A DNA stretch of 47,887 nt from Candidatus Adlerbacteria bacterium (GCA_903824155.1 CAIJVL010000035.1:1-47887), one strand, 5' to 3'. Shown: positions 29,457-29,853, counted from the first letter of the stretch. Made by a program: numbers and translations. The notes: a model not told the origin generated them from the letters alone.

Positions 29457-29486
29457 ATTACCAAGCGAAGTGGGCGAAGGCTTTGT
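29457..29486. repeat. Direct repeat copy 1 (duplicated rpsG 3' end)
   Basis: ATTACCAAGCGAAGTGGGCGAAGGCTTTGT matches 29824-29853 at 29 of 30 positions. Confidence 0.9.
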
Positions 29487-29760
29487 AGATAGCAAACACG
29501 AGAGACGTAAGTATAAAACTAATAATCACACATACTATCAGATCAAATATCCTGACTAGCCAAGGATTTTGATACCAAAATCCTGCAGATGGCTGGAAAC
29601 TCTGCTCGAGCAAACCTACGGGTAACGTTATCTTCGTGTAGATGAAGTTATAATTTTCTATTATCTTTTCAGCAACCGCAGGCAGAAATATTGGTAGCTC
29701 AACTATTAAAAAATAAATAATTCCCACAATAAAACTCCAAATGTAAAATGAGCGGCTCAT
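29458..29760 (-). CDS. Hypothetical membrane protein (100 aa) whose last 8 residues are a copy of the S7 C-terminus
   Basis: It has three hydrophobic segments and ends ...[10 protein letters not shown], against S7 ...[10 protein letters not shown]. The body is low-GC: about 36% by hand count over 29521-29760. Confidence 0.5.
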   Translation of the reverse strand: MSRSFYIWSFIVGIIYFLIVELPIFLPAVAEKIIENYNFIYTKITLPVGLLEQSFQPSAGFWYQNPWLVRIFDLIVCVIISFILTSLVFAIYKAFAHFAW

Positions 29761-29778
29761 AACTCTAGACTATCATGC

Positions 29779-29802
29779 AAAATCGCCCCTAGGGGCGATT
29801 TT
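29779..29802 (-). terminator. Rho-independent terminator after rpsG
   Basis: AAAATCGCCCCTAGGGGCGATTTT. Confidence 0.75.
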
Positions 29803-29823
29803 GTGTAAACAAATTTGTTTTAA

Positions 29824-29853
29824 ATTACCAAGCGAAGTGGGCAAAGGCTTTGT
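29824..29853. repeat. Direct repeat copy 2 (native rpsG 3' end)
   Basis: ATTACCAAGCGAAGTGGGCAAAGGCTTTGT. Confidence 0.9.

Follow-up and report, generated by a model that had tools for sequence, protein, structure and literature searches.

A conserved two-repeat slot behind rpsG holds lineage-specific cargo in two Paceibacterota lineages

The stretch of DNA analyzed here, referred to as the window (47.9 kb; 47,887 nucleotides), comes from the core chromosome of a Paceibacterota (Patescibacteria/CPR) bacterium. The nearest species representative was found to be a 'Candidatus Paceibacterota' MAG with an S7 identity of 87%. The S7 cluster at 90% identity consisted of a single member sequence, and exact-protein look-ups for rpsL, rpsS and rpsJ returned no records. 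On the minus strand, rpsL and rpsG are followed by a non-core gap, glmM and fusA, and the order continues beyond fusA with tuf and then the S10/spc ribosomal-protein clusters as far as secY. No tRNA, integrase or transposase was found in the whole window (recombinases were sought by a Pfam scan of the long ORFs). No Rfam family reached the gathering score in the window, and none was credible in the gap. Of the usual machinery for DNA uptake, the window encodes ComEC and a PilB-like type IV pilus ATPase. The features of the rpsG locus are listed below in minus-strand order.

30332-30760, minus strand: rpsL
29825-30295, minus strand: rpsG (ribosomal protein S7), intact, ending ...NKAFAHFAW and stop; Pfam Ribosomal_S7, E=2.6e-59; protein identical in the sister lineage L162
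29818-29853 (core 29824-29853), minus strand: direct-repeat copy 1, consisting of the last 27 nt of rpsG with the stop codon and a few flanking bases; attL-like position
29778-29803, minus strand: perfect 26-nt palindromic hairpin 3' of rpsG (attenuator or terminator); in L162 of different sequence and also a perfect palindrome
29761-29777, minus strand: conserved leader TTTTGCATGATA...TAGAG, from the hairpin to the cargo start codon; constant part of the slot
29458-29760, minus strand: cargo ORF encoding a hydrophobic orphan protein of 100 aa (or 89 aa when started at the GTG at 29727); the final 8 codons and the stop fall inside copy 2
29451-29486 (core 29457-29486), minus strand: direct-repeat copy 2; attR-like position; kept in L162
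29410-29440, both strands: bidirectional terminator hairpin, common to the cargo ORF and the convergent ORF87
29147-29410, plus strand: ORF87, a convergent 87-aa orphan gene and conserved right flank of the slot; homologues in L162, L163 and L164
Between rpsG and glmM: non-core gap of 1,447 bp (about 1.45 kb)
27028-28377, minus strand: glmM
24549-26699, minus strand: fusA

The core of repeat copy 1 (29824-29853, minus strand) reads ACAAAGCCTTTGCCCACTTCGCTTGGTAAT and that of copy 2 (29457-29486, minus strand) reads ACAAAGCCTTCGCCCACTTCGCTTGGTAAT. The two cores were identical at 29 of 30 positions with an offset of 367 bases, and a repeat finder extended the pair to 36 nt at 92% identity. When up to 3 mismatches were allowed, these were the only two copies in the window, compared with 0.00 expected from 100 shuffles, and the 30-nt repeat described in an earlier, sequence-only reading of this DNA was thereby confirmed. 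The rpsG gene was left intact, and the repeat includes its exact 3' end and stop codon. A larger island marked by a third copy of the tail was rejected, as no third, degenerate copy in the window rose above the background of 17-19 matches out of 30. Among the 35 genes tested, rpsG alone had a duplicated coding end, so the idea that coding 3' ends are generally duplicated was also rejected; a match in rplE (CCCTTCAAAAAATAA) was discarded as a coding-end duplication because its 16 matches out of 24 were within background. The S7-tail sequence and the insert gave no match in IMG/VR or PLSDB as phage or plasmid DNA that could serve as a candidate attP.

It is scarcely credible that this arrangement arose from an error of assembly or sequencing, for instance from contigs joined chimerically at a short repeat. 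The sequence-only reading had raised such an error against itself, but an independent Logan contig (L081) was 100% identical over 30029-26523 and spanned both repeat copies and both junctions. Additionally, NCBI, ENA and Logan assemblies each contain the S7 and cargo ORF proteins, and the agreement of these three assembly sources argues that the repeat structure is not an artefact. The same architecture was also present in a second lineage from another sample, and at 30 nt the repeat falls below the k-mer lengths normally used in assembly.

The 337 nt between the repeat copies contain a single small gene and no mobility gene, in agreement with the sequence-only description of an element of only one small gene. 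The G+C content of this insert was 35.9% (37.3% for the cargo ORF), compared with 56.1% for rpsG and 51.9% for the window, and the GC3 value was 0.41 for the cargo ORF versus 0.65 for rpsG, so the low G+C content that had been claimed for the ORF body held on computation. The cargo ORF was found, as claimed, to read in frame into copy 2, from which it takes its frame and stop codon, and its C-terminus is consequently the duplicated S7 tail. Public gene callers start the ORF at the GTG at 29727, which has GGAG upstream and yields a protein of 89 aa (P0001). A hydropathy scan revealed two strong stretches (approximately residues 2-34 and 65-98) and a weaker middle one, and the three transmembrane segments proposed earlier are thus better given as two to three. 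The rpsG terminator that had been placed between the repeats corresponds to the perfect 26-nt palindrome at 29778-29803. The free energies given in support of the hairpin at this position were -21.7 and -30.1 kcal/mol.

The cargo ORF had no detectable relatives in the databases searched. A search of 5.8 billion proteins returned only the cargo ORF itself (as the 89-aa call); HMMER over 1.84 billion representatives gave low-complexity noise only, and there was no match in Pfam, PHROGs, PADLOC, phage genomes (tblastn) or plasmid sequence. Neither the rpsG body nor any other part of the window resembled the insert. A decayed second rpsG between the copies was rejected, as the inserts scored 11 and 10 against the rpsG body, compared with shuffle means of 11.4 and 11.7. 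A transposon or MITE was likewise rejected, since an inverted-repeat scan yielded no terminal inverted repeat pair and the duplication measured 30-36 bp rather than the required 2-15 bp.

The slot was found again in the sister lineage L162, a 1,658-bp contig from a different sample. The S7 protein of L162 was identical to that of the window, the rpsL-rpsG DNA was 87% identical, and the 44 of 157 rpsG codons that differed were all synonymous. The order of elements in L162 was tail copy 1, an A/T-rich spacer, a palindrome, a leader, an ORF, tail copy 2, a terminator and an ORF87 homologue, and copy 2 started at the same nucleotide (within 1 nt) in both lineages. The spacer, hairpin and leader were identical at 45 of 61 nt; the palindrome differed in sequence yet remained perfect, which indicates that both of its arms had changed together. 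These comparisons indicate that the slot and both tail copies are common to two well-separated lineages. The notable feature of the locus is therefore this conserved two-repeat slot behind rpsG with its lineage-specific cargo, a structure carried by two lineages only within a thin comparative sample.

In particular, the cargo of L162 was a different ORF of 124 aa, with about four hydrophobic stretches, GAGGTG upstream and a G+C content of 39.6% versus a comparison value of 55.8%. Local alignment of the two cargo DNAs gave a score of 12, compared with a shuffle mean of 14.1, and BLASTP gave E=22, while the cargo flanks were 74% and 86% identical. The insert sizes ranged over 337-451 bp across the two lineages, and the ORF bodies differed by 115 nt. 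The alignments indicate that the cargo was replaced and had not merely diverged between the window and L162. No homologue of the L162 cargo was found. The longest stop-free run in the window insert was 94 codons (P=0.01 against shuffles), and that of the L162 cargo had a chance probability of P=0.0004. Both cargo ORFs are likely to be real genes, because they are longer than expected by chance, hydrophobic and preceded by a Shine-Dalgarno-like motif.

We also compared the second tail copy itself between the lineages. Copy 2 differed at only 1 of 28 nt, compared with 27% of the third codon positions of rpsG (P=0.0015), and this near-identity indicates that copy 2 is maintained, even where it is untranslated. 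Selection, gene conversion or recent re-use of the site would account for its retention. The claim that the repeat supplies the C-terminus and stop of the ORF held in the window and failed in L162, where the cargo ORF has its own stop 11 nt short of copy 2. At 1245-1267 of L162, the cargo ends ...RLKSQ and stop, and one extra A in the A5 run CTAAAAAGCC would produce an in-frame fusion to the S7 tail; a frameshift mutation, a phase-variable tract and a sequencing error are all conceivable sources of this difference in frame. The S7-tail C-terminus of the window's cargo ORF is probably incidental, because the L162 ORF stops before the repeat and the chance of being in frame is 1 in 3.

An alternative is that the membrane protein is selected for a C-terminal KAFAHFAW, which might mimic the S7 tail or act as an interaction tag, and that this selection keeps the repeat. 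The in-frame tail of the window ORF, the conservation of copy 2 and the single base separating the L162 cargo from a fusion all agree with such a function. We nevertheless regard it as very unlikely, given the stop ahead of the repeat in L162 as assembled and the one-in-three frame chance, and also because no other membrane body joined to an S7 tail was present among the 5.8 billion proteins.

The two lineages also bear on a neutral explanation, in which slippage or unequal exchange duplicated the rpsG end locally in a common ancestor, the spacer drifted to an AT-rich composition with fast-evolving or de novo ORFs, and nothing was ever mobile. Both cargo ORFs are orphans without a homologue found, the L162 ORF was missed by the gene caller, and T-rich strands easily encode peptides that look membrane-like, all of which would be expected from such drift. 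However, slippage produces tandem copies rather than a repeat-insert-repeat arrangement with 337-451 nt of unrelated DNA, and the non-coding flanks are alignable at 74-86% while the ORF bodies are at the random level. The stop-free runs are also improbable by chance, and the conservation of copy 2 exceeds the neutral expectation. A neutral origin is therefore improbable in our judgment.

Relatives outside these two lineages did not carry the duplication. In L001, whose S7 is 87% identical, rpsG is followed by 95 nt with one hairpin and then by glmM and fusA; there is a single tail copy and nothing similar to 28378-29823 of the window, that is, the whole 1.45-kb gap is absent. In L006, fusA follows rpsG. 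No second tail copy was found in the 152 tails examined, out of 160 rpsG loci drawn, among the matches listed, from genomes of species representatives and from metagenomes; this survey covered approximately 5-6 kb around rpsG and allowed up to 7 mismatches in 33 nt. No closer relative with an S7 identity above 69% appeared in the metagenomes among the matches listed. The sequence-only reading had predicted an empty site with rpsG joined to the sequence at 29456 and below. This precise junction was not found in the sequences compared, and L001 lacks the entire 1.45-kb gap rather than just the 337 bp. We also observed that the position of glmM between rpsG and fusA is an unusual interruption of the str operon, common only to L001 (L001 6493-7941).

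On the right side of the slot, homologues of ORF87 were present in L163 and L164 in other contexts without rpsG, which indicates that the right flank itself is not fixed across the wider clade. In L163 and L164, a small membrane ORF that the window has between fusA and glmM (26780-27079; matching stretch 26858-26923) directly adjoins the ORF87 homologue, which indicates that glmM and its surroundings were rearranged within the clade. Separately, the approximately 300 nt upstream of ORF87 (28790-29090, minus strand) were 82% identical to L164 (100-420). The indels in this region are not multiples of three, and the changes in its terminal hairpin look compensatory; a promoter-like TTGTGC...TATATT is present, and a terminator at 28794-28817 closes the region. 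This region looks like an unclassified non-coding RNA, with no Rfam match even at E<=1.

A second insert with a repeat at each border was located behind rplE, with the following features.

11243-11295, minus strand: rplE repeat copy A, a 53-nt terminator module directly after the rplE stop codon
10054-11242, minus strand: 1.19-kb insert between the rplE-terminator copies, with a low-GC3 membrane ORF, a 47-aa TM ORF and an antisense 96-aa ORF; lacking in L166
10001-10053, minus strand: rplE repeat copy C, 83% identical to copy A

The relative L166 has an identical S14 protein and DNA that is approximately 86% identical to the window. At 1838-1892, L166 contains one terminator copy followed by the sequence found beyond the second copy in the window, without the 1.19-kb insert. 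This comparison indicates that the rplE repeat is the boundary of a real insertion or deletion, with the window and L166 as a filled and empty pair. A third relative, L167 (384-2680), has 2.3 kb of unrelated genes in the rplE-rpsN gap, so that no two of the window, L166 and L167 have the same content there despite an identical S14 protein. The sequence-only reading had joined the rpsG and rplE repeats in a common cassette-insertion process at the ends of translation genes. The empty site in L166 speaks for such a process, whereas the restriction of coding-end duplication to rpsG and the nature of the rplE repeat, a terminator after the stop codon, speak against it.

We also found a misplaced gene tail within the rplE insert. 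Positions 10410-10439 are identical at 30 of 30 nt to the last nine rpmC codons of L166 (327-356; L29 tail PVGDSAESK and stop), while the window's own rpmC (12771-12971) lacks that tail and ends earlier with ...RKAVAK and stop. This fragment is the second misplaced piece of a gene tail and has the same length as the S7-tail repeat, which suggests that gene-tail pieces of about 30 nt may travel with these inserts. An inverted copy of the rpmC-tail fragment was observed in L166 (1896-1918) just past its rplE terminator. Across the sequences compared, lineage-specific inserts are thus repeatedly bordered by fragments of about 30-50 nt from the ends of ribosomal-protein genes.

The rpsS-rplB, rplC-rpsJ and tuf-fusA gaps also hold orphan genes, and altogether five gaps of the super-operon contain lineage-specific genes. 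ORFs without a family match were observed at 19372-19686 and 19779-20183 in the rplC-rpsJ gap (19335-20273) and at 23611-23979 and 23911-24480 in the tuf-fusA gap (21938-24548). The latter gap also includes a 345-aa ORF with a peptidoglycan-binding domain (22081-23118), in which two tandem 72-nt copies (22303-22446) are 92% identical. In the rplB-rpsS gap, four paralogous small plus-strand ORFs lie antisense to the operon within 15033-16567 (15033-15362, 15496-15816, 15916-16149 and 16257-16517). They have in common an N-terminus of the form M.EYRF.Y / MRIYKFQY and a ...DDHDAF... motif, and had no match in Pfam, PHROGs or PADLOC. Similar GC hairpin terminators lie behind all four, and repeat family D1 covers three of these terminators (15821, 16161 and 16524).

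Considering these results together, we tentatively favor, at slightly less than even confidence, the reading that the two repeats are attL/attR-type remnants of a site-specific insertion at the rpsG 3' end by a miniature, integrase-less element that has had its cargo exchanged. A very small cargo module would have inserted site-specifically into the last codons of rpsG, and the repeats would be the work of a recombinase acting by insertion rather than deletion. The incoming DNA would have brought its own S7 tail and stop codon, leaving S7 intact and displacing one tail copy downstream. The present module would comprise three parts, namely a hairpin attenuating the read-through from rpsL-rpsG, a short leader and a single small gene for a membrane protein, which would probably be transcribed by read-through from the str-operon promoter. 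As the module lacks a recombinase, it may be a fossil, or an enzyme of this kind encoded at another place in the genome may move it in trans. With unrelated cargo in the two lineages that share the slot, the site may have been used more than once or the cargo may have been exchanged.

Several observations argue for this integration. The succession of a gene end, foreign DNA and a copy of the gene end has a sharp common boundary and leaves an essential gene intact, and the insert is at 35.9% G+C compared with 56% for rpsG. L162 has the same layout with an unrelated low-G+C cargo, and a cargo swap between the same repeats is how a re-used insertion site would look. Moreover, the tail duplication is absent from L001 and from 152 other rpsG loci, and the rplE repeat in the same window forms a filled and empty pair with L166. 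Against integration, the window has no integrase or transposase, there is no phage or plasmid match, and no precise empty site was found; we know of no described integrative element that is nearly as small as 337-451 bp. The approximately 63 nt after copy 1 are also conserved, and the ORF body alone differs. Because of this conserved stretch, a replacement of cargo in a fixed slot fits at least as well as independent integrations, and a model in which everything between the repeats is the element needs an extra assumption. The earlier proposal of an element integrating at the 3' end of a conserved gene is consequently favored by the att-like repeats, by L001 without the structure and by the cargo swap in L162, and disfavored by the missing integrase and the conserved leader.

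A hypervariable slot of this type could also have arisen from one old illegitimate event that made the tail duplication, after which the cargo was swapped by transformation and homologous recombination in the flanks without a site-specific recombinase. The variable part extends exactly from the start codon to copy 2, between rpsG and the hairpin on one side and copy 2, the terminator and ORF87 on the other, all of which are conserved. ComEC and the type IV pilus ATPase are encoded in the window and mobility genes are absent. Other gaps in the ribosomal-protein cluster, including rplE-rpsN with its three contents, are lineage-specific as well, and L163 and L164 show a rearranged set of genes next to ORF87. 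On the other hand, such swapping leaves unexplained the origin of the 30-nt (rpsG) and 53-nt (rplE) repeats and their precise abutment on gene ends. It also merely shifts the question of how the cargos first entered, and both cargos are orphans for which the searches gave no donor. We consider this explanation, the strongest alternative to integration, possible but doubtful.

A broader proposal is that some Paceibacterota have a cassette-capture process, driven by a host-encoded or unrecognized recombinase, that uses ribosomal-protein gene ends of about 30-50 nt (tail and/or terminator) as sites. The spacers would then be integron-like platforms that insert, swap and express by read-through small orphan genes, often for membrane proteins. 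We regard this proposal as speculative and improbable; if it were true, the rpsG tail duplication, the rplE terminator duplication and the stray rpmC-tail fragment would be products of one process.

The ribosomal-protein operons, which serve as phylogenetic anchors for CPR genomes, belong to the most stable arrays of genes that bacteria have. In this bacterium they are broken at several points by lineage-specific orphan genes, two inserts being bounded by a duplicated gene end or terminator, and are thus unusually permissive to the insertion of small genes. To our knowledge, mobile elements are almost unknown in CPR bacteria. If a dedicated mechanism were at work, it would be the smallest recombinase-less cassette system yet described, located at highly expressed essential genes, and would offer CPR bacteria a route to acquire and test new small membrane proteins. 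If the structure is instead a decayed integrative element, rpsG would join the translation-gene 3' ends used as attachment sites, and this habit would extend to Patescibacteria.

The rpsG slot was compared with known systems of gene exchange. Integron cassettes and Xer-dependent dif/pdif modules are promoterless or single-gene units without a recombinase of their own, have sites of about 28-60 nt and are served by an upstream promoter. The rpsG slot resembles them in its single-gene cargo, the lack of its own recombinase and the short bounding sites. An integron is defined by an IntI/attI platform with attC at the 3' end of the cassette, whereas the window contained no IntI-like protein, no attI or attC (R/L box) structure was apparent, and the hairpin lies 5' of the ORF. 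Unlike a dif-like XerC/XerD site, the repeat copies a coding gene end, and its internal dyad (ACAAAGC...GCTTGGT, 6/7) is weak.

Minimal mobile elements (MMEs) of Neisseria are different gene cassettes located between the same conserved genes and swapped by transformation and homologous recombination. We know of no MME site inside a ribosomal-protein operon, and the rpsG slot differs from MMEs in being bounded by a duplicated gene end. It is similar to them in its conserved flanks, in the unrelated cassettes of each lineage (in the rpsG slot and in the rplE-rpsN gap), in the absence of mobility genes and in the presence of DNA-uptake genes. Neisseria MMEs are cited within PMC3787668 and PMC1797815.

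Integrative and conjugative or mobilizable elements (ICEs and IMEs) with site-specific tyrosine integrases occur at streptococcal ribosomal-protein gene ends (PMC4701971, PMC5357655), and the streptococcal tyrosine-integrase ICEs insert at the 3' ends of rplL, rpsI and rpmG and are flanked by direct repeats of 12-54 bp (PMC4701971). As in these elements, the target here is the 3' end of an essential translation gene, the repeats include the gene end exactly, the gene is preserved and the insert has a foreign composition. In contrast, ICEs and IMEs span kilobases and carry an integrase with transfer or mobilization genes, while the rpsG inserts measure 337-451 bp with one orphan ORF and no recombinase. 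The rpsG gene is also absent from the 18 streptococcal ICE target genes (PMC4701971), and the host here belongs to the Paceibacterota (CPR). CIMEs are decayed integrative elements that have kept attL and attR and lost the genes for integration and transfer (PMC5704250). They are recognizably derived from ICEs or IMEs and are mobilized by a related resident element, whereas the rpsG slot has no trace of an ICE or IME gene and the window no helper. The rpsG slot is nevertheless like a CIME in its repeats at the attL and attR positions, in having no integrase and in the possible accretion or replacement of DNA at the same site.
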